From assembly GCA_905178155.1 (NCBI GenBank), contig CAJINV010000009.1, forward strand, positions 2,147,373-2,211,372: a stretch of 64,000 nucleotides of DNA, read 5' to 3'. Below, in pieces: positions 225 through 60,205 of the stretch. Both the position numbers and the translations under genes were made by a program. Every line of letters starts with the position of its first letter. Positions within the stretch are counted from its first letter, which is position 1. The notes under the pieces are model-generated. The model ran no database searches and had not been told where the DNA came from. It saw only the letters and a list, made by a program, of their open reading frames with translations. Source of the DNA: Amoebophrya sp. A120. Its lineage: Eukaryota; Protista; Dinoflagellata.

Positions 225-1675
225 TTTCTCAACGTCCCCACTCTAGAACCAACTAGGTTATCGTCCCCTTTTGTATTGTAGTGAGAAAAAAAAAACCTGG
301 TGGCACCAATGAGAGGTAGATGGAAAATTTGTAAACCTCAATGTTGTTGAGCGCAAAGTAGACAAAGAGCGAAGGCAATGGCAACAACTTCTTCTATGCT
401 ACGTATTTTTTATTTATCTAGTACTAGCAACGTAAACGTTACAGAGCCATACCTGGTGCGGTTGCGATAAATGGGTTCTTTGGACCACCATTTACGAAGA
501 TGCTGAAACGATGATACGACGTTTTTTTTGTTGCTGTCATCTACTAGACGAGTTACGAAGAAGATGAGTCATCACGTCTCGCAGCTTCTCTCATAGAGAC
601 GTACTTCTGCAGCGTTCAATTAACGTGGTGCGGTGGATGCATCTCTTTCTCTTTGTTTAATTCACGGCCCGAGCAATCGCACGGCGAGGTACAGATCGAT
701 GCGAGCGAAATCAACATCGGCCGAATGTCAGTGCTCTCTGGTGCACTCAGATTGCTAGTAGAGCTCACGATGATGACGTAGTCGTGTTACGTGTATTTGT
801 TGCGAAGTCACCGACAATCACAATAACGATCAAGCGAGATACTAAGTTGCTTGATCTGCAGCTACGACACGGCTCAGCGCTGACAACACGATATTTTTTT
901 TCTCAGAATAGGACGGCATCAGCCCGTGGTCTACTCGTCCTGGCTACGTCTCTCACTACAGGTATACACCAGCTCTTCATTCTTTTCTCAATTTCATCTT
1001 CAAGCTTTCATTTCTTTATTCTCGAAAAATCACAACAAAGTTACGTCGTGTACTCCGCCAACGGGTTGCTCTGCACTCACTCTGCACAAAAATAAAGAGA
1101 AATACGTATACGTTGAAAATGAATTGCTGTGTAAATCTAAATGGCAGGTGGCGAAGATCCTCGTCCGTCGAAGTCTTTTGTACAAGTGCACGGCTTCATC
1201 ATGACATAGGCAAGGAAATCATGACTATCAGCTCTTTCTTTTTTACACATGCGAAAAACAAAAAAAAATAATGATAAAGTAAATGCGAACTAGTGGCTCC
1301 TTAGACTGGAGGTGGCGCATGAGGTAGAAGCACACCCTTGTCCTTGCTTTGTTATTTCTGTTGAAAAAATCATAGGTAAACACTTCATGCTGCGTGTCGC
1401 AAAGAAAAAGAATGGATACAGACGACAAGAAAAGCTTAGTATGCGTTTCGCTAGATTTCAGACAAATCTAGAGCTCCAAGCGGCAAACCTTCCATTTCGC
1501 TACAACGACCTACTGGTGCTAGTACTTATTTCTTTCGCGGTCACTAAGTATGGGCTTCGCTTTTGAAACATGAAAATCGACATGCAGATGAAGTGTTGGT
1601 GTATGTATAAAAGCACGACTATGGTACATCCTTGCAAAGCTGCTGATGCGAGTGCAACCATATGCATGTAGCTCA

Positions 1676-4600
1676 TTATGGCACACTGGCGCTCCGCAGG
1701 AAGTAACTCGGCTCGGTAGTCACGTTGAAAAGAGTGACGTCGAACGGCTCATCCGTTTCAGTAGTTGCTAATCCGTGAGAATCCATTGCTTGCAAATCTG
1801 GACGAGAAGCAGCTCCGCTGTCCTGCCCGTTTTCGGGGAACGAAGGCAGGACAACATCACCGATTGGAGGCGTAGTCGATCTTGCGTGGGACGCACTCCA
1901 CGAGGATTCTGCGCTGTCCAGTACCCAGCTACCCGGCGAAGCAGTTCCGTGTAGATCCAGAGCTGGTAAGGAGAACTCCGAGTCGGGCCCGTGCGGCATC
2001 GGAACGGACTGCAGAAAGGGAGACCTGGCTGTTACACCCAAGTAGGGCGAAGCCACTTGGCTTCCCGAAGGCAACGGGGACGGGGTCCGCGTTCTTGGCA
2101 TGCGATTCACGTCCAGAAAATCATCACCTCCATCGGCTTTTTCCATCGCGCAATTTTCTCCAACGCACCGGGGTCGCGACCGAGAGGCGGCCTGGGCGAC
2201 TTGTTCGGCTGGTTCATCTACTTCGCTATGCACAGGTTCATGATGCTCCCTCGGAAAGGACCAGTAGGAATGACCTTCCTGCTGCTGTTGAAGAAGGCCA
2301 CCGCCGGGTTCAACAGTAGAGCCAAATAAAGAAGTCCCCGCATAATTTGCAGTTGTGTCCTCGCAGCAGCAGTTGACAAAGAATTCATCTTCATCCGCAT
2401 TACCCGGGGCTGCGGGTCCGAACCGATGAAGAGGAAGTCCACCTCCAAAAACGAAGGTTGAAGGTGAAGCTTGCGGGGCTTCCGCTTGCTCGCGCGCGTT
2501 GGTTTGTGAAGTCTCACCCCATAATTGTCCGCCGTCGTGCTCACCGGCTCCTGCTGCACCCGCCGAACTACAAAAGCCAAAGCAATGCTGGTGCTCCTCC
2601 ATGACGATATTGGCCGCGACGCCGTCGCCGGCATCTTCCTGTGCATGTGCTTTATCTGGTTCATAGACTTGTGCTTGATGCCCGGAACAATGGAATAGTG
2701 TGTCCACGTCTCCAAAATACTCCTGAATGTTAGTCCAGAACTGGTCGCTCTCAGAGTGCTGGAGATTCTGCTGCTCCTGAAAGTCTGGGACTGTAATCGT
2801 GAGAGGCACAAAGCGTCCAGCACGGTGGTCGTACGTCGTCACGACCATTGGCTGCGTTATGGCTTGCTGTTGGTAGTGATGCTGCGGCAGTTGCGCTCCG
2901 GTCGCCACGTGGAGGGCAGCTCCAGCGCTATGCTGGGAAAGCGGCGGATTGATCACGAAGGAACCAGGAGTGGCACTACCCGGTACAAACTCGGTAGCAT
3001 TCGCGTTCCACTCGCGACTCGCCGCCCTTGCGAAATCAGATTTTATCGCTTCAACCCTTTTCATCGAATCGACGTCCGCCGAAAAATCGTTCCCGCCAAC
3101 GCCAAGCACAGTTGGTGTGGACCAGCATTGACGCTGATTTGCATCGCCGACATGAAATCCATCGTAAGTAGACGACGAAGCTGCATGGTGTTGGGGCTGC
3201 ATGAACGCATTTCCGGAGTTGACGAAACCTTGGCCGGGGGTAAAGCTGGTCGCTTTGGGATTTAGCTGCGGAATGGAAGAAGCCGAACTGGAATGCACGA
3301 ATTCCAAACGGAAATGCACTGCATCACTTCCTCCATGTTTCCCCCCGTTCCACCGCCACAGTTGGTCAAGCGTTTCGCGACCGGAGAGAAAATCCGTGTG
3401 TCGTATGGATTTTCGCCGATCCCGCACCCAGTACAGTGTTGCCACTCTCTCCTCCCCAGTAGCAGCAGACGCGGTGGTGCTTGCTGTCCATTCGCGATGC
3501 AGATTCTGACTCTGATGAAATGCAAACGAGTGATCGTCTAAAGCTGCTAATGCTCCTTCATCCTTGTTCTCGTCTATCCCTTCCATCATGGCCTGCAGTC
3601 TTGAGCTCTCGCGCGCGGCCTTGGAAGGAGGCAGTTGAATTCGCATGCCTTGCGGCTGCACAGCGGCGATGAACTGCTGAACGGTGAGCTGTCGCGATAG
3701 CGGCTTGAAGCTAAAGCAATCGCGGGACTCCTTGTTCACCACGAGATTCAGAATCACTTCAACTGACGAGCGCAGCTTGCCTCGAGCGTCGCGGTCTTCT
3801 GCTCTAATATCGTGCTGATGCATACTCTGCACTAGAGCAAAACCTTCTCTGCGAGCCTGTTCCAAAATCATCTTGCGCTCTTCGCTTTCGAGATGAGCGC
3901 CGTCCCGCTGAAGATCATTTTCGTATCTTCTGCTGTGGCGATCGCGATGTTGGTCGTACCAATCGCGTGCTACACGGCCAAGATGTTGAGAAGACGCTGA
4001 GGAACTGGATGCAGAGGATGAGCCCTCTCGTCCACGTGACGAGGCCCCAGGCTCGCTTTCCTGTTTGAAAGAAGATGCCATCGCCATTTTGGAGAAGTTC
4101 GTGTTCATGTAGGCGTGTTTCAGTGGGTTCTTATCATCCAGTCTTTGTCTTTCCTGTGAAAGAATCTCAGAAGTGACCGCGTGGTCTTTGTTTTTCTTCA
4201 AAGCAGACGATGTTGTGTTGGGTCTACAACCCTTGAAGCTGTCAAACTTCTGTGTGTCAATCACAACGAGTGGTGGAGCCGCGGCATTTTCATCTACTTC
4301 ATCACATCGTCGCGTTATATGGTTTTCTCCAAGAGCAAACGGGTCTGACTTTGGGAGGCATCCTTGGCCTTGGGCTCGGAAGCACCTCCAGCCAGTCGCG
4401 TTGTTCTTCGAGAAAATAAAGACCTCATTGCCTGTACTAGCTTCTGCCGGGATCACCGGAGAGGTGGAAGCGGAGCCTTGGAAGGAAACGGTTGGCCCGG
4501 CCGTGTTCTGGTCCAAGAATCGCTTGCTCTGCTGCCGCGCGCTCTCCAACTGCCGCACTGCGTCTTTCATGGCTTCGATTTCTTCCATACTGCAGCCAGA

Positions 4601-7600
4601 CGCGGCAGTAGTAGAACGTGTTGATTTATTCGAGGCTGCTGGGAAGACACCAGCAGCAGCACCACTAGTGTTCGTCGAAGCATGATCAAGAATTGAGGAC
4701 AAGTTCACACTCTTCACGTACCCCGGATGCGGCCATCCTACCACATCGTCAGTCGTTTGGACCCAGTCTCCTTGATTTTCATGAACTTGCATGATGGAGA
4801 ACGACTCCGTTTGCATCGCTTTCGCCATGCCGCTCTCCGAACTAGATGAAAGCGAACTTGTCTCCTGCGACGCGTTTTGTTCTCGTCTTTGGGCGAGAAA
4901 CCCAGTTTGGTGCGGGGTCGAAGGCCGCGAGCGCGACGCAGAGGGAGGCTGATGCGGCTTCTGTTCTTGCATGGACACGTGGTGGTCCTCAGAAATTTCC
5001 ATATCACTGCTGTTGCAGCTGCTCGCAAAGGAGAGTTTTTTGTTCCTTCGCCTTTTACTGTTGGCATCGGCAGCGAAGGCGGCAAGCGTCACAGGCGCGT
5101 CTCGCGCACTGTCGCTTATATTATTCAAATAGAGATTGGCTTTCATTCGTTTGTCTTCCTCGAGAATTGCTTGGGCAAACTCCTGCACTTTCTCGCCCCC
5201 ACTGTCCGCAAGTAGATGCTCTTCTGTCAACCAAAGATCCGACAGCGTCGGGGGCTGCAATGCTTTTTCTCGGCGTTCCAGCGCTTTCGTAGCGTCCTCC
5301 GCGAAGTACGGAATCAAAATTTTTACTTCGTGCAACAGGTGTAGAAACCTCGCCCCGCGGGCACGCCAGAGCTGCGGCAGATTAAGTTTCGGTGTGAGCA
5401 GGGCGTAGTGGTTGAAAGGAGTGGTAATCTTTAGAGCAGGGTGGACGTACTCTGCTTCCTCGTACATCAACTCTGTGTTAAAAAGCGTCAATCCGCTAGC
5501 CCGTTGTCGTGCAAATTCCTCCAGCAGTTCTGGTGTTTTGTTCTCCGGACTCACTTCCCTCGACGTGGACCCACAGAAATATGACCGCATGTCGAACAGC
5601 AATTCCACCATTCTACCACCAGGCTGCGCTGTGGTCTCTGGAGCCCCCGCGTCGCTAGAAGTAGAAGATACGTTTGTATTTGTTCGAGTACGGCTCGTCG
5701 CCCTGCTGCTGTTGGGTTCGTAAATATACAGAATGCCTGTCGTGTCATCTACGTTGGTAGTGATTTGGACCAACTTTTTATCGGCCAAGAAAATCGAAAA
5801 AAAATCCGGTGGCGCGGCGAAACTGTAGAGGCCAGAGCCAACCAACGTAAGGGGGGCGATTCCCGATTCCCGAATTTTGCATTGCTCAAAATCGATTTTG
5901 CATTCCCGCAGACGCGGATTGCACAAAATCGATTTTGCATTGCACGAAACCGAATCCCGCAAAATCGATTTTGCATTGCACAAAATCGATTTTGTATTGC
6001 ACAGCATCGATTTTGCGTTGCACAAAACCGAATCCCGATTTTGCAGTGCACAAAATCGATTTTGCATTGCACAAAACCGAAAGCAGCAAAATCGATCTTG
6101 CATTGCACAGAAACGATTTTGCATTGCACAAAACCGAATCCCGATTTTGCATTGCACAAAATGGATTCTGCATTCCCGCAGACGCGGATTGCACAAAATC
6201 GATTTTGCATTGCACAAAACCGAATCCCGCAAAATCGATTTTGCATTGCACAAAATCGATCTTGCATTGCACAAAATCGATTTTGCACTGCACAAAATCG
6301 ATTTTGCTCTGCACAAAACCGAATCCCGATTCTGCATTGCACAAAACCGAATCCCGCAAAATCGATTTTGCATTGCACAAAATCGATTTTGCATGGCACA
6401 CAACGCAGATTGCACAAAATCGAAGCCGCAGACGCGGATTGCACAAAACCCCTCCTCCAGACGCGCAATCCCGCAGATTGCACAAAATCGATTTTCCATT
6501 CCCCCAGAACGCAGCGCCGACCACAAGGCCGGTTTTGAGCTGACCACAGGTGGTTCGATGTTGTGGGTCGCGCAAGGGCTGTTGAAGGCCACACAATCGC
6601 CCGACCACACAAAATCGATTTCGCAGCTTCCCAGGTCCGACAGAATCGAGCGGCCGCGTGGCTCAATATCGAGGCGGTGCGCCACGCAATCCGCCGGGCC
6701 GACGGACTAGGGGGGAGAGCTTCCAGCTATGCGCTTTAGCGGATCTCCCACAAAATCGATTTTGTGCGTCCGCCCTTTCTTCGCGGATGCAGTCTCCCAC
6801 GCCAATGCCTTACCAACCCCCGTCCCAGCCCGCGCCCTCAGAGGTACGGGCAACGGGCCCTACCGGCCACAAAGTCGATTCTGCAACCCCTCAACCCTAT
6901 GGACAACGTCGGCACCTTGCCGGACATTAGATTTTCCGGAGAGATCTGGACTTCCGGAAAGATCTCGGGAGATCGCTGCGGTCCGGATTTTCCGACTTCC
7001 GGAAAATAGAGCTTCCGAGAAAATAGCAGAAAATCGATTTTGTGCCTCCATTACTATTCAATAGTAGCGAGATCGGACTAAACCTGGTCCATACCATCGG
7101 CGGAGGCAGTTGCTTACTATCCAGTTGGTAAGCTGCTGCCAAAAATCCAAAAAAAATCCGAAGGCAGTCGCGCTCGAGGTGTCGCGCGCAAAAATCCGCG
7201 TTGTTTTGTGTTGCGTCCCGAGCAAAATAATAATTACTATTGAATAGTAACCAACTGCCTCCGCCGATGGTATGGACCAGGTTTGGTCCGTCTCCGTTAC
7301 TATTGAATAGTAACTCGCGCGCACTTTTGGCGCATTTTTGGCGCACACTCGGGCGCACTTTTGGCACACAGAAAATCGACTTTGAAGCGCCTCCGAATCT
7401 CTTGAAAGTGCAAGCGTTCGGATTTTTGGCAGCAGATTACCAACTGGATAGTAAGCAACTGCCTCCGCCGATGGTATGGACCAGGTTTGGTCCGTTCTCC
7501 TTAGCAATGAAGCAGAAAATCGATTTTCCGAGTCGATTTTCGATTTCGAGGACTTGCTGATGTCCCGATCTCGATTTTCGATTTCGGAAAATTCCGGATT

Positions 7601-10600
7601 TTTCGCAAACTCCGGACTTTTCGAAATTTCCGGAATTTCCGGAACCCGGAAAATCGATTTTTCGGCAGTCCCGGAAAGTCCAAGCAACGCGCGGACTTCC
7701 GGAAAACTTGCTCCTCTGGATTTTCAGGAAGTTGGAAAATCGATTTTGGCAAACAGCCGGACAGCCACCTGCCTTACCCACATAGCAGGCCCGCGCCACC
7801 TCTTTTGCCCGCACCACCACTGACGCGGACATCGCACAAGGAGCGGTCCAACAAAATCGATTTTGCACGCCTCGGGTGATTGAACCCGCAGACGATTCTG
7901 CGAGCCTGAAATAACTAAAATCCCCGACTCTGCGCCCCATCAAGCGCCCAGCGGCTGTCGAGGACTGAGCCGCGGCACCCACCGAGGGCTGTCTGTTTAC
8001 AAAATCGATTTTGCGACCCCCGCGCCAGCCGAGAGCCTGTTCCTGGCGCCTCTACGGAGCTCAGAACACGCAGACGGGGCCCATGCCGCTCCCGCGGCTT
8101 TTCAGAACTTGGGCCCGGATGTAAGTCACAAGCTCGGGCGTTTTTCATTGCTTTCTACGCTGGGCCAACGCGATGAATGTGCGGAACTTCATCGGGGCGC
8201 AAGTTCTGGAATTCGCGATCATCCCTAAGCCTGTAGCGTGCGAGCGAAACATCGATCGATCCAAGGCGGGCAGAGGCCCGTCCTCTGCGACTTCGCCCCA
8301 CGCAATCAATTTTGCAGCTTTTGCCGGATTTTCCGGCTTTTGTGTTGGTAAAATCGATTTTGCGACCACGCGCGGACTGTGTGGCCCCGCCCGAGGATAG
8401 GGCATCTTCGAAAAGCGTGCCCGAAGGGTGCGCACAAAATCGAATCTGTCCGCGGGTACTCACAAAATCGATTTTGTGAGCACCGCCCGCCGGGCGGAAC
8501 ATGACAACCCGGCGCCCCCAACCCGGCTGCGGGAATCTTTCTGGCAGCCCGGACGCTCCAGGGTGGGGCCTAACGCCTCAGGACACCGGCAAAAACTGCC
8601 GGGAGACCGAGTTGGCGCATTCTCGAGCTTCGAGAACGCGGGCAACCGACTTCGTTTCGCGCTACTTTGCTTCGCTTGTGGACGTTAGCAGCCGCGGCAC
8701 AAAGTCGATTTTTTGCGGCGTGCCTGGATTTTTTGCGGATTTTTTTCCGATTTTCTTAACATTTTTGAAGTCGGTCCAAATCAGTACTAATCTACGTACA
8801 CGGCGTGCAGATTCACGCCGACTTTATTCTTCAGTAAATTCGTCTTTGTTTGCGCAACAGCAGGCTGTACAGGTGTCGTGATTCCTGCGTCTGAAAAATT
8901 TTCTGCTTTGCCGGTGCTCATCTTTGTGGTGACGGCGCCATCGTCGAATGAACTTGAAGGAGTGCCACCACCACGTGCTGCTGATGAAGAGGAACTCGAT
9001 GAGATGGCAAGTGTTGATGTCGCGGACCATGCAGCTGGCGTGGAAACACCTCCAGATCTACTCTGCGGTGGCGACACTGACTCTTTCGTCGTGCGGGTAC
9101 TACCCGGCCCACCAGATGCAGTGCAGTACCCGCCACCCCTCAAGGGGTCATGAGATCGCATCGTACTCGTGGTGCCAAATTCATCTTGTTCGGCCGCTTG
9201 CGCGGTGGTTGTGTCGGAGTGCTCGTGGTCTTTTCCTGTCCTCTGACCCTCGGTAGTTCGTTTCGCGACTTGTTCATCAACACTTCTATTCTCGATGCTC
9301 AGAACTAGGTCGTGCACATGCCCCGCTTGTCCCTGCGTCATCGCAACATCTTCTTCAAGCGCCGATATCACAGGAAAAAGTGTTAACGTTAACGGTTTTC
9401 ATAGATTACAAAAATGCATGACAAATTTTGCCTAGTATGCATGATATACATGACAAATTTTGGCACGTTTTGGGATGCGTTTCTGCATCACAAATTCCGT
9501 TAACGTTAACACTTTTTCCTGTGATAGCCGAGGAGTTCTCCTCAAGCTCATTGCCACTCATCGTACCACCTCCGCTCTCCATTGACAGAAAGCGCGAAGA
9601 TGAGGACGAACCCGCACCACGTGGCGTCGCAGTCGCAGTAGAGCCGGTGACAACAGAGGACCCAGTTGAGGCGTCCGAGTGCTTGCGCCCGTACTTCGCC
9701 TGCTCCTGTTGATCGGATTCGGACAGTGGGTTTTCGACGTCCTCTTCCCGATTCATGCCTCCTGAAGCACTTGGTGCCTCGTCTCCGCAGCTGCCCTCGG
9801 CCGCGACTTCCGTGTCGCTCCATGCGACGTCGCCGGAACGCATCGTCCTCGTTCTCGTCGTCCCGCCAGTCTGAAGAGCAGTCGTCGCGCTGCGAGAGTC
9901 CTCGCCTTCGGCATCGGAGGTCAGGTCCATCTGCGCGTCTCCTGCAGCCAAAGTTGTGCTCGCGGTTCTGTAGTCCTGAATGAAATTCCAGTTTTCCGAA
10001 ACCTCTAGGGAATAGTCGTAAGGCACCATGGTGGGCGCCCACCAATAGGGCAAACGCGTGTAAATCTTGTCTGGCTCATGGCGAAAACTCGCGGTATAGA
10101 TCACCGGCGGTGCTACTGGCGGTCGAGAATCTGCCGCGACTGTGCGTGGTCTAGTACTCGATCCCTTTTCTATTTTGTCCGATTTGTTCTTTACTTTCAT
10201 GTTCCCATCTGCATTTGCCATTGCGTGTTCGCTTGCTGACTGTGGCCGTGGATACTCGATGGTATCCCCTGGCGCCACAATCACGTTCCGTATCATTCGC
10301 GCGTCGGGGTTCTCTTCAAAATCGTCGCCCAAAGGAATAAACGCGAGCTGCGTCGTGTGCCGCGCCGGAAGATCAGAAGACTCGGTGCCTTCACCATCAG
10401 CGCGACGAGGACCTAGACCTTCAACTTCCCAAGCCTTGTCGCTGTCTATTGGAACGAAACTTTCAGGAATCAGCAAGGACATCAAAGAAGCTGCAGACGG
10501 CTTACTTGAGAAAGACACAAAATCTTCAATTTGTTCCCGTGCGAGAGTAGGCGTCCCCGTCTGTTGGCCTTGGTCTCCTTCGCCTTCCTCAACAATAATC

Positions 10601-11034
10601 AAATTTGTTGCCGTAGCCGTTGTGTCTCTCGAACTCCTCGATCTCGATGATTGTTCTTTTTCTTGTTGCCCACTAGCACTAGCAGACGACGCGGACGAGT
10701 TCGTGCAGCTGGACGTCGTAGGGTGGTCATGGGAGGCGCCCAGTTTCATCTTCGCGCGCTTTCGCAAGAGCGCCTGAGCGAGTACTATTCCGCCGCTGGT
10801 CGTCGTAATGCTGGGGTATAATGTTGACCAGAAAAGCGAACTGCAACAAATCGAGACTAGCGAGCTTCGTCCGGCGACGTGCCGCCCGGCCGCTTGAAGT
10901 CGCGAACGCGCGTTGGGTCTTGCCACGTGACACTGCGAAGGCACCATGGCACTACTTTTTGTGGGCTTTATACGGATAGGAGCAGGACGAGCGAACTTTT
11001 TGGTTTTTCTTTTATTTACTCCGGTGCCGGTCAT
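1676..11034 (-). CDS. Large (~2049 aa) low-complexity protein with two PAM2-like motifs; exons 11034-9527, 9360-8790, 5746-1676
   Basis: ORFs 9406..11034, 8787..9371 and the non-repeat part of 1676..6685 join in frame (ENSS|ALEEDV and LHAVYVD|DTTGILYIY) when the two TIR elements plus one TSD each are removed; total 6150 nt. PAM2-like motifs: QLNPKATSFTPG and EWNANATEFVPG. Confidence 0.7.
5871..6495. repeat. Minisatellite of near-palindromic ~21-bp units (TTGCACAAAATCGATTTTGCA) with variant units
   Basis: Tandem copies around the palindromic core AAAATCGATTTT, interspersed with AAAACCGAATCCCG and CCCGCAGACGCGGA variants. Explains the repetitive ORFs in all frames. Confidence 0.9.
7051..7494. 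repeat. Nested inverted-repeat cluster inside the 3-kb element
   Basis: A ~75-bp unit (CGGACTAAACCTGGTCCATACCATCGGCGGAGGCAGTTG...AAAAATCC) at 7074-7148 is inverted at 7420-7494, with a partial inverted copy at ~7253-7290. The palindrome TTACTATT(G/C)AATAGTA(A) occurs at ~7051, 7234 and 7297. Confidence 0.85.
9366..9526. mobile_element. 161-bp introner-like element (30-bp TIR, 5-bp TSD GCCGA); non-canonical intron
   Basis: Perfect TIR TATCACAGGAAAAAGTGTTAACGTTAACGG. GCCGA at 9361-9365 and 9527-9531. Removing 166 nt restores the host frame. Confidence 0.9.
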
Positions 11035-17813: not shown

Positions 17814-20444
17814 TTAGTGTGCAAGCACTTCACGCCTATAGCCACACTTGAAGCAGCTATCCTTGGATGCGAACACATTAGTGTTGCACTTTGGACACGG
17901 CCAGTCACCGGGCCTTACAATGTCGCTTCCCTGCTTCCCTGAACCTTTGCCTTTGGATGCCGCACTCTTGCCACCACCTGCACCGCCAGGGGCCGACCGA
18001 GAGTAACCACACTTGAAACAAGAATCCTTGGACGCAAACACGTTGGTATTGCACTTTGGACAGGCCCAGTCGCCCGGGCGAACGTTCTGGCTCCCGGCTC
18101 CCGAGGAGGCTCCAACAGGCGTTGGAGCTGCGTTGAAACTGCTGTATGGACCGCTAGCATTGTTTGATGGCCTTGTCCCCGAGGCTCCCCCGGGTGTGCC
18201 AGGTGGACCTGCATCGTTCAACCTCGAGTAACCACACTTGAAGCAACTGTCCTTGGAACCAAACACAAGCATTCCGCAGCCGGGACAGTTCCAATCCCCG
18301 GGGCGGGCGTTCGGATGATCCTGTTGTCCGCCGCCCGCAGCACCACGGCGTTGCGTAGGCTGGCCAGTCGCGGCTGCCGTCCTCTGCGAGGGCGGCGCGG
18401 CGGAGGAGGAAGTAGCGCGGGAATATCCACACTTGAAGCAGTCGTCTTTCGACCCAAACACCAATGTTCCGCATTTTGGACACGGCCAATCCGCTGCCTT
18501 CCCATTACCTTTTCTGGTGGTTTGCGACTGCTCTCCGAACTGGTCTCGCTCCATCCTTCCCGTCCTTTGCGATCGGACGGGCTGCTCCTGTTCGACAGAC
18601 GCACCGCCTTTTCTCTTGTCGTAGCCGCACTTGAAACAATTGTCGCGGAACGCGAAGCAGTGCGTGGCACAGCTGGGACACGACCAGTCGCCCTCGCGCA
18701 CCTCGCCAGTGGGATTCCTGATGGGCTCGGAGAGGTCGGCAGCGTGATCACCACGCCGGCGCGAGCGGGACCGACGCTGGCGGTCTCGGGACCGCGATCG
18801 GCCAGCTCCGCGACCCCGCGGCGTGCTGCGGTTGCGCGGCCGGCCGCCCGCTGGCGGCTCGTCGCGGCGGTCGAAGTTGCAGACGAAACACTTGGACTTC
18901 TTGGCAAAGACCAGCTCGCCGCATTTCCAGCAGTCCCAGTCCCCCTCACGCCGGTTGGGTGCGTCTTTGGCAACCTTCGGCTTCGCGCGCGAACACTTGA
19001 AGCACTTGTCTTTGGACCCAAACACCATCACGCCACAGGTGACGCAGTCCCAATCGCCGTCCAGCCGATTGTTCGGTCCCCCCTTCTTCCCGTCGCCCTT
19101 CTTGTTGTGCGACAGCGCCGCTTGGGATAAGGAGCTTTCCAGCAAGTCCGACTCGCGGTCCACCGACATCTTAGTCACGGCGAGCGTGTCATCCAGCATG
19201 TCCAATACGTTCTGATGGCTGATTTCCTTGGAAATCTCGTCGTCCACGTTGAAGGAGCTCTGGGCCTCGACAGCAAACGGGTTCATCATCATCCGGGGGC
19301 TGTTGTTGGGGCCTTGTTCCTCAATCACGAAGCCTGGTGGGGTGAGGTGCTGGCCATCGTCCTGCGACGCTGGTTCACCACCAATAGCGGGCGTACCGTA
19401 TCCAGATCCACCCTGATCGTCAAGAGCACTACCTGTAAAGAATCATTTCAAAGCCTTACCGTTTTTGCATATAGTATAAACTCGAGAAAATCCGTGAAGT
19501 TCGACTTCAAGATCCTGCGGCCGTTGCTTCCGATCGATCGTAGTCATAGCAGTCTGAGCCATTTTCTAGCATTATATGCTGATTCTCCATTGTGATAAAA
19601 AATAGTTGCGATTCCGCATAATGTTGGAACTGCGAAGCCGTGCGCACAGCGACAGCAACCAGGCGGCCGCTTTGTTGATTGATTTTGATTTATCTTACTT
19701 AATCTTTATGATTATTCTATATTTTGACAACTGTGCGTGCATGCGGTTTCTGTGCGAAAAGGCTTCGGCTTCCAATTCTTTGAAACGAAAATAAAACAGA
19801 ACAACAACAAACCAAAAGACGTAGGCGCGGCTGGGCGGCAGGCTAGGTACGATTCAAAGGCAACGACGATGCTGCGGCAGGAGCCACATGGTATTCGACC
19901 TGTGGGCATGCTGGGCGCGCGGCGCGATCGGCAGTTTGCTGGGCATCTCGCATCCGGGTGAACCAGCGCGGTTTTGTTCTTTCAATTCATTCGCCGATGT
20001 ATGTATGAACATCTTCAACAGCCTGCAGTACCACAACCTGGAGGAGACTGTATAATGCGGTCGTCCTGGGCGGGCCATCAGTCCCCGCAAATATTTCCTA
20101 ACAAGAAGAACTACACCGCGGCGGTTGTACTTGTAGTAGTATAGATCATTGCCAACATTACCTGGTCCTTCGCCCGGAGTCGCGCCACCCATTTGTTCGT
20201 CCTCGTCAACATGACTGTTTTCCCTGCTCGATGGCCTACTAGTACTGCGAGCGGTTCCGCACTTGACACATTCTTTTTTGCTAGCCCGATTGATCTCCTG
20301 ACAATGCTTGCAAACCCAATCCGGTTCGCCTACCTTCGCCGCTAGGCTGCGGTCGAAGTTGCATTTGATGCACTTGTCCTTCGAGGCGAAGACAATTGTC
20401 CGGCAGCCAGGGCAGGTCCAATCGCCTGTCCGAATCTTTACCAT
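17814..20444 (-). CDS. Protein with nine RanBP2-type zinc fingers and an RS-rich segment; exons 20444-20162, 19432-17814
   Basis: Nine D-W-x-C-x2-C-x10-C-x2-C units, e.g. GDWTCPGCRTIVFASKDKCIKC and GDWACPKCNTNVFASKDSCFKC. GT-AG intron 19433-20161 joins both ORFs in frame (634 codons). RS tract RSRSRDRQRRSRSRRR. Confidence 0.88.
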
Positions 20445-21882: not shown

Positions 21883-24800
21883 CTATCTATCGGGAACAGG
21901 GGAGGGACTTGGAGTGCTGCTGGTGGCGCTGCTACTGGGAGACATCTGGTCGAACAGGACATCTCCGGGAAGATCGTCCTCGTGATAGTACAAAACTGGG
22001 TTCTTTTCTTCCCCTTCCTGCCGCGATGTTGTCGAACTGGAAGCGCCTGCGCCAGCACCCGCACTCGTCTGCAGCTGAACTTGTCCTGGTCCACCTCGTA
22101 CTTGTCCCCCTATTCTCGTTGCGGGACCACTTTCACTTTCGTTGGAGTTTGTCCTCGCAGTTTCCTCACTTTGCTTACTCCCGCGCAGGTCGATAAACGC
22201 CGATGAACCCAAAGAAGTAGTGTTTGTCTCCCGATTTTCGTGTACTGCTTTTGCAGCACTTGCTCTGGTTGTTGAACCCGGGGAATTCCTTTTGCTGTTT
22301 TGCTTCGTCGCCGCCCCACCAGCACCCGATTTCATCGTCCGACCCGGCTTGTTTGAGTCCTTTTTGGCGAAGACCCCCGGGAGCGAGTCGTACTTTTGCT
22401 GCATCATGAGGCTCAAGTTCTCTGAACTGTCTTGATCTTTCACCATCGCTCGCATGCGTATCACATCCGCGCGCCCGTCTTCGGCCCGCGTGTCAAACAG
22501 GCGCGCACCCTCGTAATCGTTGTCCGAAAAGATGTTCACGTCCGCTGCAGCCGCACGCGAGTTTAGGGAAGATCTCGTCGTTTCTATGCTGTCAGTCGTC
22601 ATCCGCTGTTGCTCCTGCTCGCGCAAACGCATGAGCTCGGTGGCGGTGGACGCGCGTTCCAAGTCTGTAATATCACGGTCAACAACATATCGCGGGGACG
22701 CGTACGCAGCTGGTGAGTCGGCCCCGGTGCTTGTCCGGACCACCTCACCGTTAAACCGCTGGAAGAACGCGGGAACCCAGGCTCGTTTTGCCTTCTTTTT
22801 CTTCACTCCTTGTTTGCCGGCGCCGCCTGTGGAAGTGGTACCGCGGCCCTTCGACGTTGCTCCTGTGCTCCTGACGTCGTTGTTCATCTCTGCAGAAGAG
22901 GAAGACGAGTTAGCTGCGCCCTCTTCGTTGCTTTCTACCAAGAGGCCACTCCGCGTGCTATGCTTTGCAAAAGCGGCTCGATCCTCAGCGTCGTGGCTGC
23001 GAGTTTTGCTTTTGTTCGATCCATTTTGTGCCCCAGCACCGACGAGTCGTTTTGATCCGCTGAGATCGCCGTCACTCCCGTACTCGCTGTAATAACTGCT
23101 GTCGTCCTCGTCGCCAATGTTGGCGTCCTCCTCCGGCGGCAAAACCACCGGCCAGAAGGTCGGCTTGTGCGCGGCCTCCCAGAATTTTCCATTTACCGGG
23201 GCGCGCAGAAGCACGGCAGTGCGCTTCTTTGACACCGTGACCAGGCAGGGCAGGTCGATCTTCCAACCCTCCCCGTCCGCCTGCATGTACTGCGGCTGGC
23301 GCAGGTCCATCAAAAAGGCCTTACCCCGGGCCAGCGTCGCCATCCACGCGCCGCAAAGCGTTGCCCGTGCCAGGCTGCACTGGTTCCGACAACCCAGCAC
23401 CTCGATGGTGCCGTCGTGCGGCCGCTGCTTACCCATGTCACCCGGGTACGGCCTCCGTCCCGCACCGTAAGAGTTGATATTCAAGAAAACCTGACGAAAG
23501 CGACGATATTTTCTTTGGAGCAATTCTTGATGATCATGATGTGGCTTGGTTCAAAGCTGCTAAGATGTTGACGAGCCACGCAATCTTTTCTTTTACTTTT
23601 TATCAAAATCATAAAAAATAAATCGCTTTTTAATAGATACCATAGTTCTGAGCAGTCCACTATGTTGTCCGGACTGGATCATTCGTCTTTTCAAACCAGC
23701 GTCCTCGAATTCCCCGCCGTAGCGAAGACGGTCGTGGTAGTAAAAGTCCATCCCGTCGGCCAAACTCGGCGGACAGCACTTCATGAAACCCTTGCAGCCC
23801 CCGCACCCGTACCACATCTTACCCAGCCCGCTACTGAAGGTGCACTTCCCGAAGGCTGTCTGTCGCGCATCCTCAACGAATACGGTGGTGTCGGCGTCCG
23901 CGCCAAAGGAAAAATAATTTTGAAACGTCGACTGGAAAATTTCGCCGTCGTTCGCAGCGTGGGCGTCCAGAAGCCTGTTTTTTTCATTATGATTGCAACA
24001 CGATCTTTGCATGGATTGGAAGACTTGCAATGAAAATCTGCAGTTCACTACTCCCAAAAAGTCGTATCATTTTTAGATGAGACATGACGGCGCTCGTCAG
24101 CTGCGCCTAATTAAAGCGAACGTGAAGGTAGAAGTGTAAAAATGAGAACTATGCAATCCAATTCATTGATGGTTGCGGTTGGCTCATCAATGAATCACAA
24201 TCAATAAGTTTGCAATTTATTCTTGTTTTTTGTTCACAGCAACAAAAGCAATCACGTTACCTCGCCATGTTGTCCTTTATTCTTTCGGTTTTCTTCTTCG
24301 CGTATTTTGTGTCGTGGTGGAAGTTGCTGATGCCTTGACTCTGGTCCGCGATGTCGTCTTCCTCGGTGACGTAGTTGCATTTCTTTAGGGCGGCGTAGAC
24401 CCGCTCCCGGTGCGCCGGGTCCTGCACCTTTTGCGGGTGACTGCCCAGCGTCCGGAGCTTGTGGTCCTCGGGTAACTTCTTTTTCGGGAGCAACGTGAGC
24501 TCCCACTGATCGAGAATGGTCAGCTCCGCGTCCTCCACCATCTTCAGGTACTGCAGCGCCCGCGCGCTGCTAAAGTAGAAGGTGGACCCCCAGCCGAGCG
24601 AGCGGGCCAGGTCGTTGCCCGTTCCCAGCGGCAGCAGCGCAACCGGGGGCTGGAACCGCAGCAGCTTCTGCGCAAGCATGTCCCCGAGCACGCCGAGGAT
24701 CCAGCTCGCAGTCCCGTCCCCGCCGCAAACGAGCAGCCGGGCCACGGACTGCATGTCGCACACCTGGTCTTCAATGAACTGCCGGGGATTCTGGCTCGAC

Positions 24801-26302
24801 AAATCGCACACGTTTTCCTCGCCCAGCTCCGGAATCAGCCGGTCGATGATGCGTGCGCCCATGTTCCCGCCGGACGTCCGGTTCACAAACGCAAAAATGC
24901 GGCTGCGCCCGTTGTAGAGCATCAGGAATTGCGCTTTGTTGTTCTTCCCGCGGAACACCTTCTTCACGGGGCTCAAAGAAGCGTTCTCGCCCCCGATCGC
25001 CCGCGCCGACACGGTCCGTTCAAAGTGTGGGCGCGGTCCTCTTCCATGCTGTCCAGCAACGCCGGTGGAGCGTTGTGACTTGTCAAAACTGGACGGCCCA
25101 CCAGTCTCACTGCCCTCGTTGTCGCGGAGAGGGGAACTTCCTCGTCCTTCTGCAGAAAGATCTGCTTGTTTCAACGGGTCCGAGTTTGAACCATTGTTCG
25201 TTGTCGACCACTTGTCTTCACCTCTTCTATTTTCCGAATTTCGACCTTCTGCTCCACTGCTAGTGGACCACGAGTGCGCGCTCCTTTTGACGGGGCCGCT
25301 CGGTGGCGAGAGCGCCAAGCCGGCACCATTCAGAAAGGCCTCCAGGGACATCAGACCACCGTCCTCGCAGGAGTTGTCTGCTGGACTCGGATCTTCATCC
25401 TCGTAGTCGGTCTCTGCACCAGCAGCAGTTTCCTCTTCCTGCTCCTCGAGGGCGTGGTCCGCAGCTTGTTGCGCTTCTGCGCTTTTGTAGCTATTCCGGG
25501 GCGGAAGCCGGTTATCGTTTTCTCCGATACGGTGTTGGTCGTCTTCCTCTTCTCGTAATATCACAGGCGCGCTTTGACCTTTTCCAGCAGGAACAAGAAT
25601 TCTACTTGCATTTATTGCAGCTGCTCCGGCAGCGCTGTTTTTGTCGTCTTGATGTGATGGGGAATGAGCATGAGGTAAATAAGGCGTGTCTAGTACTTGA
25701 CGCGAAAACGAATCAGCACCGCTTTGTCTTTGACTTTCCCTCGGGGGGCCTGCATGAGAACACAAGCTGCTCCGAGACGACGACAACAAGGCCGGTACTG
25801 CCGAGCTGGTGCTTTCATCGCCCCCATCGCTCGCTGTGGTGGTGGTCGATGAAGACGAGGATGCGCTGCTGGGCGTGCCGCCGCCCCGACCCACCCCGGG
25901 GCGTCTTGTTTCCGCTCGGTCGACTGCGGTTGGGAGATTGTGGAGCGCCGCGGCGGCCAAAGTAGGGTGAAGACGTCGCGATTGTGCGGCTGCACCGAAG
26001 CCATGTCCTCTCTCGCTGTGGAGGTCCTGGCCGGCAGAATTGTCGCTCCTCCTTGGTCGCTCTGCAGGATCAAATGGCGAATCAAGCTGCACTGACGACT
26101 GTTTATTTTCGTTATCCGCTTCAGCATGATGTTGTGAACCCCTGTGTTTTCTCCTGCTCTTGATGTTCATCTTCATCTTCTGTTGCTGCCTGGCGATCTC
26201 CGCCTTCAGGTCCTGCACCGACAATCGCGGTGGTGCTCCAGCGCCGGCTGGCTCAGAAGTGATCACGTCGTCCGACGGCACCTCCATCGTGATTGGCGAC
26301 AT
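21883..26302 (-). CDS. DGK: Diacylglycerol kinase (catalytic and accessory domains); exons 26302-24261, 23974-23641, 23490-21883
   Basis: Catalytic motifs FVNRTSGG, LVCGGDGT and LPLGTGNDLARSLGWG; accessory motifs FQNYFSFGADA, FLNINSYGAG and HDGTIEVLG. GT-AG introns 23975-24260 and 23491-23640 keep the frame. Start codon uncertain. Confidence 0.9.
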
Positions 26303-28382
26303 GACGGTAACTTTCTCCGAAGGGGACGAAAGCCTGGTCAGCAGTACGCTGGGCAAGCTAGGAACAATTTCGACCCCAAAAAGCTCCGACCACGACCGGC
26401 AGTGCAAAAAGATACAGACATCATGGTCTTGCCGCGTTGGTACAACTGCTCATAATCGTGTGTAGTATAATATTTCGTTACAAAATATCACCGCTAAAAA
26501 AATAATGAACGGTCGTACATCTGCAGGTGCAAACAGAGGTACACCCTCAAGATCAAAAATGACAGAAGCTGGCCGCTGTGGGTAAATGACAATGAGGGAA
26601 GAAGATAAAAGATCGAGCCCGAGGGGCAGAAATGATCGAGCTTTATTACTCTGCGATGGAGGAAATTAATATGGGAACACGAACACCGCGATACAGATAC
26701 TACTTAATTTGTTTCAAATCCTACTCCTTGTTTGATGCGCGGGTGGGAGTGTAAAAATAATATCCATTGCGTTGCGAGAGCGAGAGGGAGAGCGTCACCG
26801 TCTTCAGCGTAACATACTATAAAAGTTGAAGTTCCTCATATCGAGCGTTGTGGTTTTAGTGCAGTAGAGTGATGATGTAGCCGCTCTTGGCGAAGGAGGG
26901 TCTCCTTAATGGGGCTCCACCTGGTTTTTGTTGTATGCATGATGATACATAGACAGAGCTAGAGGTGCTGGATTTTCAGATCTAGAAAAGGAATAAATTT
27001 GCTGAACATCTAAGCGGTCGTGTGACAAACGCTCGCGCATTCCAGCAACTCGGACCGACTAGCTTTGGCTTTGCGTAGCTGGAGGCGGTAAAGTACATTT
27101 TCATTTACATGATTAGTGCAGCTGTTGTTCGTATGCAGATGTTCATGCTGTCATTGCGAATCATGAGTCGTCGTCGTGGCTTTAAACTTTATTTATCGCG
27201 GTAACTACAATAGTCACGGGACGAGGTGGTGTCGCTTTCCTCGTCTTCCATGTTGATTGTTTGTAGTAAATGGCGCTAAATTGACTGCATGAACGAGAAC
27301 CGAGTGTCAAACTATCGCTCAAAAAACCGATGTTTTTCATCTAGTAATTTACTTCTGCTATTGAACGTTGCAACTTCACTCAAAACCGATTTTTTGGTTC
27401 CCTCACTCACCGACTCATACCTTCATCGTGTTACCCAGTGGGTCAGGACGAAAACAAACACAAAAAGCGGATGTCAACGTACGAAGTGTGAAAGTCTCCA
27501 TTCAACGTAAGTACTGAACAGACGCACCCACTAGTAGACGCGTGCAACTTCTTCGTTCGCGCGGTTTAGGTTTAGCTATAGCTACAAGGCAACTTTCATC
27601 AAATCACCAACCAGAATAGACTGACAGGGGGTTCTACGTCTTTTTATCTGTATTCGTAGCAAGATGATGACGTTGCAACGTTAGTCTGGATAAAGAACAT
27701 AACAACCCGCCTGTGTGACGATGCGAAAACAGACCACAGAAAGAAGGATCGAAATTCAAAATCTATGTTTGCAAAATTTCCCTTACAAACGAAGCCAACA
27801 ATCATTCAAAAAATATAAGCTGTATTCTCTAGAGGAGGCCACTTTTACTTTTTTGTCTTTGATTTGTAGCAAACGAAGAGAGTGATAAAAGAGTCTAAAG
27901 CGATCTCATCCGGTTCTGTATCACCGGAGAAGCGAAAGCAATAGGCTAAACGTAAACACGAACATACCAAAGAGCAAAAGCTAAAAAGACGATCAAAATG
28001 GTCTTTAAGTTTATTTTCTATGCTCCTCATTCTGCACAACGAAGCATCATACCGCAACAAATCAATGCAAGTGCAACCAACAATATTAGGCGTATCTTTG
28101 CTGGACTGAAAAAACGTCATCCGCCCCCGAAGCAACCAGAGCAGTGCGACGAATTGCAACTACATTCAAATACAAATTGAAATTGATCATTTCTGCAAAA
28201 AGAAAATAAAACAAAAGTTATGATGTAGTTCATGATCATGATATGAGGTTCAGGTTGCTCATGCTGGTATCGCGAGGAAGAGTTGGTAGCTATCGCTCCA
28301 TATGCAACTATAATGTTAGAACCGAAAGCGAAAAGCGAAACCCTAGCCCAAGCCAGTTCTTGACGACAGTATTCGACACATT

Positions 28383-33945: not shown

Positions 33946-36045
33946 TCAGCTGTGAATTTCTACTTTTCTTTCACAGTACCGCCAGTTGATCCGTGCAGGA
34001 TTAAACCTGGGGTTACAGAGCGGATGGTGAACGTAACCGGGCTCATGCATACCTGACCAAGACCGCGGCAAGTGATCCACATGTCTCATCGCGGCAAATT
34101 CCATGACGTACACCTCCCGAGGCAGCCGCTCCTTTACGTCGCTTTCCTCGAGATTGACGCCGTGGAGCGCGTTTGTATCAAAAATAAAACCCCCGAAAGC
34201 TTTGCCATCCATGTACTCAATCCTCGAGAAGTCCGGGTCCTGGTATCGTCCCCCGGTGTACAACTCAGTTGTAGTCCCGTTTTGAAAAAAATTATGTTCC
34301 TCTTCGGACTCTTGCGAAGTAGATTCTCTTCCCGTTATTTCCGCTTCATCTGGTTGTGACCTCTCCTCCTGGTCGCCCTGTTGATCATATTCTTCGTTGA
34401 AGAACGCAGTCCTAACAGCAGCGTCCTGCAGCTTGTTCGCCGCTCGAACGGGGCCGTGAAAGTAGTCGGTGGGTGAGAGCCAGTGCGTGTGGTGTGTGTT
34501 CCGCATAATCCGGGTCGGAAATCCTTTTCTGGGATCTGCCGGCACGTCGGTGAGGTACAGGTACACTTTCAGCCGCGTGCCACACCCGTCGTGATGCCAT
34601 AGTGCGTTGTCATACTGGTGCTTACGAAGGTCGCCCTTCAGCTTGAAATACCCTACGCCGCCGGTAAATGACACATCCGACGAACGCAAATACCCGTGAA
34701 CCAGCTTCCGTAGCAACGAGTGCCGGTCGGCCAGAAGTGGTAAAAGCCACGCCCGATCATTCGGCCTGACGTGTTTCGTGGCTTTTGCCAAAGAGTTAAT
34801 ATGGTTATCGTCTCCCTGCTCCTGCTGGTCAAGCGGCTTGACGAAAGACGGCACTCGCACGAATCCATCGCGACGGAAGTCTTCGATGAGCTGCCGCTCG
34901 CGGGCGGACAATATCCAGGAAAAAACACCCATCCCCATCCATTTTTTGCATGGCAAATAGTGGACTTTATGCATGTTTTGCATGACAAATTGGATGGGGA
35001 TGGGTGTTTTTTCCTGGATAGACAAAGGTGGCGGTGGACCAACATCAGCAGTTCCCACGGGGCTATCAACTGTAAAAATGTCTGGGTCTGGAAGAATGCG
35101 TGACTTGTCATGCAGCTTTTCCATGACCCATGAAGTCTGGAATGCAGGACCTAGCATGACAGATTCTGCGCGATCTCTCTCATGCCTATCCTGCATGAGA
35201 AACTCCCTCCCGACTTGGTCAAAACTGGACGACTTTTGGTAATCATGCAACACAGATTTTTGCATGCTTCAGATTTAGCATTACAAGTTGCATTCTTCCA
35301 GACCCAGACATTTTTACATTTGATAGGGGCACTCCTGTCCCCAATCCCAACGCCGAAACCAGGTGGGTAGATCCACGGTGAAAACAAACCGCGCCACCGC
35401 CGTTTGAAAATATCTTCGCTGCAAGCGCCGGAGATCTCGGTCCCCGCGTATTCGATTCGCAAGTGCCGTGAAATTCGTTTCCGAGCTTGCGGCGTCCGTA
35501 AATTGTTGATGTCCCGGTATGATCCGTCGGCGGACGACGTTTGTCAAATCGAAGCCAAAGCGGTGCTGCACCAACCCGTCGCGTGCCAGCGCGCGCAAAC
35601 TGACTTGCAGGGCGTCTGCGGCTTTTGTTTTCCTGCCCTCCCGGGTAAAGAGTTTATTTGCGTCTGCAGCTGCATCGCCCCGTTCTTCGAGTGGATTATA
35701 CCAAGCCAGCAGGGCGTCTTCCTTCTTCTCTTCGTCCAGCCAAAATGCATCAATGAGCTCCTGTATCTTTTCGTCCGGGAGAAAGTTTTCGCCTCTCCAC
35801 TGAGGCTTCTCCTTGCGCAAAAAATGATACATATCCGGGTCGTACAACGTTTTGGCCTGGAGGTTCGCCAGAGGCCGTGTTGGCTCCCCCTCGGGAGTAC
35901 TAGAAGATCTAGATCTAGACGAAAGAGCTGCACGACCATAACCGTAGTACAGAAAAATTCCGAAACCGAAGGAAATGGGGGCGCGGCGCCGCTGAAAAAT
36001 CTGGATCTTTTTCCTCATGATCTTAAGGTTAAGTGCCTCCTCCAT
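33946..36045 (-). CDS. Fe(II)/2-oxoglutarate dioxygenase, PhyH-like fold, with N-terminal hydrophobic segment; exons 36045-35326, 35058-35021, 34906-33946
   Basis: IEDFRRDGFVRVP, WHHDG (HxD), LKVYLYLTDV and FIFDTNALHG (distal His) match the PhyH-family pattern. 573 codons after removing two TIR elements. Confidence 0.75.
34912..35020. mobile_element. 109-bp introner-like element (30-bp perfect TIR, 5-bp TSD GACAA)
   Basis: TATCCAGGAAAAAACACCCATCCCCATCCA and its exact reverse complement form the ends. GACAA at 34907-34911 and 35021-35025. Confidence 0.9.
35064..35325. mobile_element. 262-bp introner-like element (36-bp TIR, 5-bp TSD GGGGC)
   Basis: TIR TATCAA(C/A)TGTAAAAATGTCTGGGTCTGGAAGAATGC. 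GGGGC at 35059-35063 and 35326-35330. Removal joins GQECP|VGTADV and removes the in-frame stop. Confidence 0.9.
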
Positions 36046-59354: not shown

Positions 59355-60205
59355 TATACAGAATATATTAACTAGCAAAATTCTGGCACTTTTAGCAATA
59401 TGACATATGACAATATTACAATATGTCAATATGACCACTACTTTTTGAGCAATATGACCGGACCCATCGGCTTCGGGGACCGAAAGATGGCCTGACAATG
59501 ACACGCCGTCTTCGCCCCCCGTCTAATTCGTTCGCGAAAACGCCCCCGACGGTCGATAGCCTTACCGCCACCCAGCTGCTCCTATACGAAGAAGGGACTC
59601 CACCCGGGCTGCCCACTCGTCGCCGCGAGTCCCCTACTAGCCCTAGGAGACCAACACGCGGGAACTGCTTGAAAATCAATGTGGTTTGACACAGTTTCGG
59701 TGTGATTAGATGCGCTACCCTCAGAAGCAGAAAGACTGTAATCAGCGCCAAACTGTTTAGCCAGGTGGTCGGGCGCGGGAATAGTTCCCGAAAAAGCACT
59801 CTCCGATGATGCTGCGCCAGCAGCAACCTAGTACATGACTCTGCAGTCCTGTCGAGCCGCTAACGGCAGAGACAGTGCCTGTGCCATCAATAGCGTGCCA
59901 GGAGTGCGCTCAACGCTGCGCCAGGGCGTTGGCAACATGCTCCGGAGACGAGAAACCTACGAGGCGCATAGCTGGTATCTGCACAAACTGCACAACGGCG
60001 CGCGGTCCTAATGGCCGCATAGTCCGCAAGCAGCTCGGACGGGGCCAATTTTCATCCGCGGGGCTGTCGCGAGCAATATGCAATATGACAATATGACAAT
60101 ATTACAATATGATAATGCTACTTTTTTGGCGTTTCGGTGCGCTGTTGTTGCCAAGTGTCATATTGATTAATATGTGTCATATTGCTAGTTAATATATTCT
60201 GTGTA
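59355..60205. mobile_element. ~850-bp MITE-like element with TIRs and subterminal CAATATGA(C) repeats, intergenic or 3' UTR
   Basis: ACAGAATATATTAACTAGCAA near 59358 is inverted exactly near 60182-60202. CAATATGAC/CAATATTAC clusters at ~59397-59458 and ~60074-60184. No clean TSD (AATTG vs TATTA). Confidence 0.75.

Follow-up and report, generated by a model that had tools for sequence, protein, structure and literature searches.

A 3-kb transposon in an exon of Amoebophrya sp. A120 is probably removed from RNA as a non-canonical intron

By which route do the non-canonical introns of Amoebophrya leave RNA? Non-canonical introns make up more than 60% of the total in the strains A25 and A120, and many of them carry inverted repeats of 8-20 nucleotides (nt) and direct repeats of 3-5 nt. 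Farhat et al. (2021) reported no clear splice signal and no detectable U1 small nuclear RNA, and proposed that a hairpin joins the exon ends; their analysis covered introns of 40-1000 nt only (PMC7789003; published work is cited throughout from parts of each paper). This question can be addressed at a locus of Amoebophrya sp. A120 lying in the window analysed here (the whole stretch of 64,000 nt, contig CAJINV010000009.1, positions 2,147,373 to 2,211,372; all coordinates below are those of the window), where a gene on the minus strand is interrupted by a 3,035-bp transposon with an 8-bp direct repeat on either side. We propose that this transposon, together with one copy of the duplication, is probably removed from the pre-mRNA in vivo as a non-canonical, hairpin-type introner intron.

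The read evidence consists of assembled contigs, in which ratios and rare forms are hidden. Twelve runs were listed for the stretch 4300-10200, including a seawater metagenome (X9) with a word share of 0.06. Runs X3, X5 and X6 each hold a contig that skips 19430-20158, 23489-23638 and 23974-24259, three introns that end CT..AC on the plus strand, which corresponds to GT..AG for minus-strand genes. In X1, a 19.6-kb contig spans 9502-24900 with the introns retained and without any joint. Since X3, X5 and X6 skip GT-AG introns that are kept in X1, they represent RNA, and X1 behaves as genomic DNA. The RNA runs derive from sample S2 of study P2 and the DNA runs from sample S1 of study P1.

The element is exactly absent from one X3 contig of 764 nt (depth 5.66), which consists of 48 nt ending at 5746, followed by 8790-9360 and 9527-9671, with no other difference from the window. 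This one molecule lacks both the 3,043 nt made up of the element and one repeat copy, and a further segment of 166 nt. In the DNA of X1, by comparison, the insertion is present at full single-copy depth: its left junction lies in a 14,073-nt contig (depth 43.9) that ends at 5782 inside the element, and its right junction in a 632-nt contig (depth 41.9) covering 8762-9393, against a single-copy depth of 43.4. The 5746/8790 joint was not found among the X1 DNA contigs. Three other joints in X1 (7585>11805, 9399>9483 and 9527>13579), with sides of 20-24 nt, were set aside as matches between repeat copies.

We found that the same removal restores a long reading frame. Apart from frames located inside elements or antisense to longer ones, all long open frames of the window lie on the minus strand. 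The frame upstream of the 3-kb element, at higher coordinates, reads ...NLHAVYVD and then meets a TAG inside the element, and the downstream frame reads ...DDTTGILYIYEP and runs 1,357 codons further. Taking out 3,043 nt joins the two in frame, as had been noted in the first-pass annotation of this DNA, which was made from the sequence. When the two segments (3,043 and 166 nt) were removed together by script, one stop-to-stop frame of 2,049 codons was obtained, compared with 1,676 codons after removal of the 166 nt only, 1,559 after removal of the 3,043 nt only, and 1,676 with nothing removed. The 2,049-codon frame results only from the removal of both elements.

The window's own open reading frame (ORF) for this gene, P0002 (1,311 amino acids), starts at a methionine 46 residues past the junction. 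It was the only sequence returned when homologues of the interrupted gene were sought, both in a word-indexed search and with HMMER, free of any length restriction, over 1.84 billion representatives. In Pfam, the four large flanking frames gave a weak PAM2 match below the cut-off and nothing else. By these searches, the interrupted gene is an orphan.

The inserted element is a non-autonomous DNA transposon with terminal inverted repeats. The 8-bp ATCTACGT is perfect at both of its flanks, similarity ends beyond these 8 bp on either side, and two fixed positions would, by simple arithmetic, share 8 bp exactly with a probability of about 1.5e-5. The ends form inverted repeats of 55 nt with 78% complementarity (5754-5808 versus 8736-8790), and their global alignment gives about 42 matches in 54 positions and diverges after about 54 nt. 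Both the 8-bp duplication and the imperfect inverted repeats of about 54 bp that had initially been noted around 3035 bp were thus recovered. All 21 occurrences of the palindrome AAAATCGATTTT in the 64-kb window fall inside the element, many of them scattered. None of 12 ORFs in the element (95-293 codons) has a Pfam match at an E value of 0.001 or better, one repeat-derived ORF giving two matches at chance level (E 0.02-0.04); because no match is credible, we consider the element non-autonomous. The complex of long inverted repeats in its interior (7051-7511) may be a foldback insertion nested in the transposon. When terminal repeats were searched within the window, each element family returned its own two ends only. 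The element had also been described as 10-30 times longer than the others, which holds against the two elements with a 5-bp repeat (161 and 109 bp) and fails against an 845-bp candidate with a 4-bp repeat.

Interior contigs of the element reach a depth of 225-389 in X1, compared with 43-44 for single-copy sequence, which places it at about 5-9 copies in this DNA run. Collapsed X1 contigs differ from the present copy at 11 of 1,683 bases and by one 4-nt gap, and the family looks young. Neither the terminal repeat nor the internal unit, used as scan patterns, gave a locus in metagenome or in viral contigs.

Other RNA contigs touch the element as well. In one X3 contig (depth 7.1, short side 20 nt), position 5774 is followed directly by 8760, so that the opening 20 nt of one terminal repeat meet the final 30 nt of its partner; the contig may represent an artefact or a miniature hairpin derivative located elsewhere in the genome. 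Two X3 contigs run from the element into near-identical foreign sequence (ATCACCGC.CCAATTCGATTACCA), before the left end (5753) and after 8225, a hint of a further copy whose right part differs, or of a nested arrangement. At position 7491, a C in the RNA contigs of X3, X5 and X6 stands against a T in all X1 DNA contigs (depth about 1,286) and in the window; this is either a copy variant that was dropped from the DNA contigs or a change at the RNA level.

How might such an element be taken out of RNA? In the sense RNA, the duplex of the element ends has a calculated energy of -67 kcal/mol, compared with -21.4 +/- 3.6 for 300 shuffles. The removed segment can be placed in nine registers (AC..CA, CG..AA, GT..AC, TA..CG, AG..GT, GA..TA, AT..AG, TT..GA and TA..AT), none of which is GT..AG. 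The two borders pointed out at the outset, GT..AC and AT..AG, are among the nine and are, as was then held, not canonical. We propose that the 55-nt terminal repeats would pair in the pre-mRNA into a long stem with one 8-nt repeat copy on each side of its base, where the splicing machinery would cut equivalent positions of the two repeats and ligate the exons. Amoebophrya genomes of this kind contain many thousands of small introns bearing inverted and direct repeats, and the machinery would be the one that handles them. Since the two repeat copies are identical, every register would yield the same mRNA. In such a scheme, the length of the direct repeat (5 or 8 nt), the repeat family and the size of the loop (about 100 nt or 3 kb) would be immaterial, and the enzyme might be a modified spliceosome or another activity. 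The pairing of the ends and the RNA product are supported by the data above; the enzyme and the cut positions are what we infer.

The 166-nt segment offers a comparison within the same transcript. It contains a 161-bp element (9366-9526) with perfect inverted repeats of 30 nt (TATCACAGGAAAAAG...) and TCGGC on both sides. The stretch 9361-9526 is skipped in all three RNA runs (X3, X5 and X6, with sides of 145, 193 and 31 nt, respectively) and kept in X1, and GT..AG is found in none of its six registers. One transcript therefore holds two unrelated elements that differ in direct repeat (5 versus 8 nt), stem (30 versus 55 nt) and loop (about 100 nt versus about 3 kb), and both apparently leave as the element plus one repeat copy, which makes the locus a natural side-by-side test. 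The 3-kb element, although of a different family, apparently takes the same route out of the RNA as the small elements. The depth bin of the 166-nt element in X1 is about 2,007, compared with 43, which indicates many copies.

Several points weigh against the removal of the 3-kb transposon in vivo. The first-pass annotation had called it a precisely removable intron; the precision is borne out by the exact 5746/8790 joint in an RNA contig, but this joint comes from one contig of one run with a short side of 48 nt, and X5 and X6 hold no contig over 5746/8790, a stretch that they leave without cover. Contigs give no read counts, and hence no ratio of spliced to read-through RNA. As the family is young, open flanking frames would persist even after a simple knock-out of the gene and, as the gene has no homologue, there is no orthologous empty site or conserved junction for comparison. 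Moreover, direct repeats at the base of a hairpin are the geometry of a proven reverse-transcriptase artefact in yeast (PMC2923612). The insertion could accordingly be a recent knock-out that is transcribed through, with the reverse transcriptase switching template in vitro between the 8-nt repeats that the stem juxtaposes. In the yeast case (Houseley and Tollervey 2010, PMC2923612), an apparent 117-nt intron had no splice signals and carried short direct repeats where its hairpin closes, and it was demonstrated to arise in this way. The 8-nt repeats here likewise sit at the base of a stem of -67 kcal/mol with no GT..AG register, intact frames prove little in a young family, and the joint was seen in a single contig. 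We nevertheless regard template switching as rather unlikely. The X3 contig passes the joint unbranched, which, from the way assemblers behave, argues against read-through being the dominant form. At position 8377, the variant of other copies is the sole one in the RNA contigs (3.67/3.67 in X3 and 4.6/4.6 in X5), so that the interior of this copy is unseen in assembled RNA while the flanking exons have a depth of about 5; again with regard to assembler behaviour, this weakly suggests that read-through transcripts do not predominate. Unlike the yeast artefact, which was produced in vitro on a non-coding RNA, the joint here restores a frame of 2,049 codons, and an element of the same class, at 9361-9526, is removed in 3 of 3 RNA runs. 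In similar published genomes, more than 60% of introns are non-canonical and the gene models need their removal (PMC7789003). A literature search found no paper that pairs 'Amoebophrya' with 'template switching'.

It also counts against removal from RNA that the RNA (S2/P2) and the DNA (S1/P1) represent different samples. The culture or the time point from which the RNA was taken may have lacked the insertion, and the contig would then be the empty site with one ATCTACGT. An empty site would produce an identical contig, and a young family is possibly still active. We consider this unlikely, as the exons shown have the same sequence in the RNA contigs as in the window (no other letters in the listed pieces), which indicates the same strain, and the insertion stands at full single-copy depth in the DNA (43.9 and 41.9 versus 43.4); gain and fixation between two samplings would, we infer, be rare. 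Finally, a transposase might excise the element from the DNA of some cells, with the transcripts arising from the repaired copies. The intact terminal repeats and the young, multi-copy family would be compatible with this, but no empty-site joint is present in X1, though contigs can lose rare variants, and the 166-nt element, which is present in the DNA, is missing from the 764-nt contig as well. In addition, cut-and-paste excision of hAT-like elements usually leaves footprints and not one exact copy of the duplication. Altogether, excision from DNA appears very improbable.

Should the transposon indeed be removed from the pre-mRNA in vivo, the rule of removal would be one of geometry and not of sequence or size, which would constrain the enzyme and explain why exons can take up even large transposons free of cost. 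Should it not be, the locus would warn that, in genomes of this type, hairpin-associated joints between direct repeats can be artefactual. A broader proposal is a sequence-blind, structure-guided excision from RNA of any stem-paired insertion flanked by a direct repeat, which would act as a general RNA-level eraser of DNA transposons, whatever the family, with a repeat of 5 or 8 nt and a loop of between 100 nt and 3 kb; it would dispense with GT-AG recognition and perhaps also with the spliceosome. We put this forward as tentative and, on balance, doubtful. The earlier suggestion that the cell removes any insertion with inverted plus direct repeats is an extrapolation, and one that agrees with the hairpin model (PMC7789003) and with the diversity of introners (PMC12130899).

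Tolerance of unrelated exonic transposons through splicing is already in print. Gozashti et al. (2025) traced A120 introners to non-long-terminal-repeat (non-LTR) and LTR elements and to diverse DNA transposons with terminal inverted repeats, some of them with ORFs (PMC12130899). On the reading preferred here, the 3-kb element would be an unusually large representative of this known introner kind, differing in its longer duplication and its unrelated repeat family. It shares with the Amoebophrya introners non-GT-AG borders, end repeats capable of forming a hairpin and a direct repeat over both borders and, like them, it has no transposase, is repeated in the genome and lies in a genome with unidirectional gene clusters (PMC7789003). 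The repeat motif of A120 consists of TAT, seven less conserved bases and at least three As (PMC7789003). Two small elements of the window (TATCACAGGAAAAAG and TATCCAGGAAAAAAC) carry this TAT-N7-AAA type of motif, in contrast to the 3-kb element, whose ends (TGGTAG... and TAGTAC...) have no TAT start. Together with the unidirectional frames and the non-canonical introns, the motif points to an Amoebophrya genome of the A120 type. With 55, 8 and 3,043 nt for inverted repeat, direct repeat and removed segment, the 3-kb element lies outside the published ranges, which in part reflect the 40-1000-nt analysis window (PMC7789003). Four motifs of these elements gave no match in the supplement of that paper, as far as it was covered.

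The removal proposed here, of an exonic DNA transposon along with a single duplication copy, follows what has been described for transposon-derived introners (PMC12130899, which cites Huff et al. 2016). We compared the element with 95 of the 118 rows of the Amoebophrya family table of PMC12130899 (57 of 60 for A25 and 38 of 58 for A120), a table that gives no sequences. In these 95 rows the duplications are 2-6 long, with one of 11 and none of 8, and no final class is hAT. The A25 families (57 of 60 rows) are all shorter than 1 kb by the coordinates given, and several A120 rows (among 38 of 58) have coordinates of several kb, which we take as alignment positions. The introners of Micromonas and Aureococcus are GT-AG introns (PMC12130899), unlike the 3-kb element with 0 of 9 registers. 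The nonconventional introns of euglenids resemble it in their non-canonical borders, in the pairing of their ends and in the duplication-like repeats at their junctions; they reach up to several thousand nt and are suspected to originate from small non-autonomous transposons (PMC11282704). They belong to another lineage and have features of their own, namely a short conserved CAG/CTG pairing near the ends and release as circles (PMC11282704).

The first-pass annotation had pointed to the hAT superfamily. It does resemble non-autonomous hAT elements in its 8-bp duplication, its terminal inverted repeats, its short subterminal repeats and its lack of a transposase. The ends of hAT elements, however, are short terminal inverted repeats with a YARNG motif, whereas those of the 3-kb element are long and imperfect (55 nt, 78%), and their first five bases, TGGTA and TAGTA, fit the motif poorly. 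None of the 12 element ORFs contains a hAT domain or encodes a transposase, and 8-bp duplications are also made by the P and Merlin superfamilies and by some Mutator-like ones. The duplication length thus stands in favour of the label, and the assignment to hAT, judged on sequence features, is unproven.

The features of the interrupted gene, of the 3-kb element and of the other elements in the window are collected in Table 1.

Table 1. Positions of exons, repeats and inserted elements in the 64-kb window
Feature	Position	Strand or location	Evidence or details
Downstream coding exon	1679-5746	-	RNA contigs over 1200-4379, 4610-5041, 5060-5599
Target-site duplication copy 1, ATCTACGT	5747-5754	3' of the removed segment in sense orientation (minus strand)	Exact match
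Non-autonomous transposon with terminal inverted repeats, 3,035 bp	5755-8789		GC 0.524 versus 0.54 in flanking exons
Left terminal inverted repeat (TGGTAGTGATTTGGACC...)	5755-5808		Inverted-repeat pair, alignment
Subterminal array, units of about 21 nt around palindrome AAAATCGATTTT	5863-6404		
Internal long-inverted-repeat complex of the 3,035-bp element	7051-7511		95-nt arms 91%, 73-nt arms 89%, 67-nt direct pair 87%
Right terminal inverted repeat (reverse complement TAGTACTGATTTGGACC...)	8736-8789		Inverted-repeat pair, alignment
Target-site duplication copy 2, ATCTACGT	8790-8797		Exact match
Coding exon between the 3-kb and 166-nt elements	8790-9360	-	X3 contig, 764 nt
Non-canonical intron, 166 nt	9361-9526	-	161-bp element plus one copy of the 5-nt repeat TCGGC
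Upstream coding exon, same open frame	9527-11034	-	RNA contigs over 9527-9671, 9650-10272, 10582-10902
109-bp element	34912-35020	In minus-strand frame 33946-35268	30-nt perfect inverted repeats (TATCCAGGAAAAAAC...), 5-bp repeat GACAA
845-bp candidate element	59358-60202	Flanked by two long minus-strand frames	21-nt perfect inverted repeats (ACAGAATATATTAACTAGCAA), 4-bp repeat GTAT

The 109-bp element and its repeat together measure 114 nt, a multiple of 3, and the frame is open through the element. The 845-bp candidate would represent a third repeat family, and the frame there has 747 codons with or without its removal. Rfam gave no match over the whole window.

Elsewhere in the window, a diacylglycerol kinase gene lies on the minus strand at 21886-26449, with catalytic and accessory domains (listed as 'eukaryotic DAG kinase' in the protein atlas). 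It is split by GT-AG introns of 286 and 150 nt, which are removed in the RNA contigs; canonical and non-canonical introns therefore coexist in this genome. We also observed that contigs of X3 and X5 match at 10670 and again at 22020, the two matches being separated in both runs by an identical stretch of 40 other letters, which may represent a chimeric contig, a shared repeat or some other joining.

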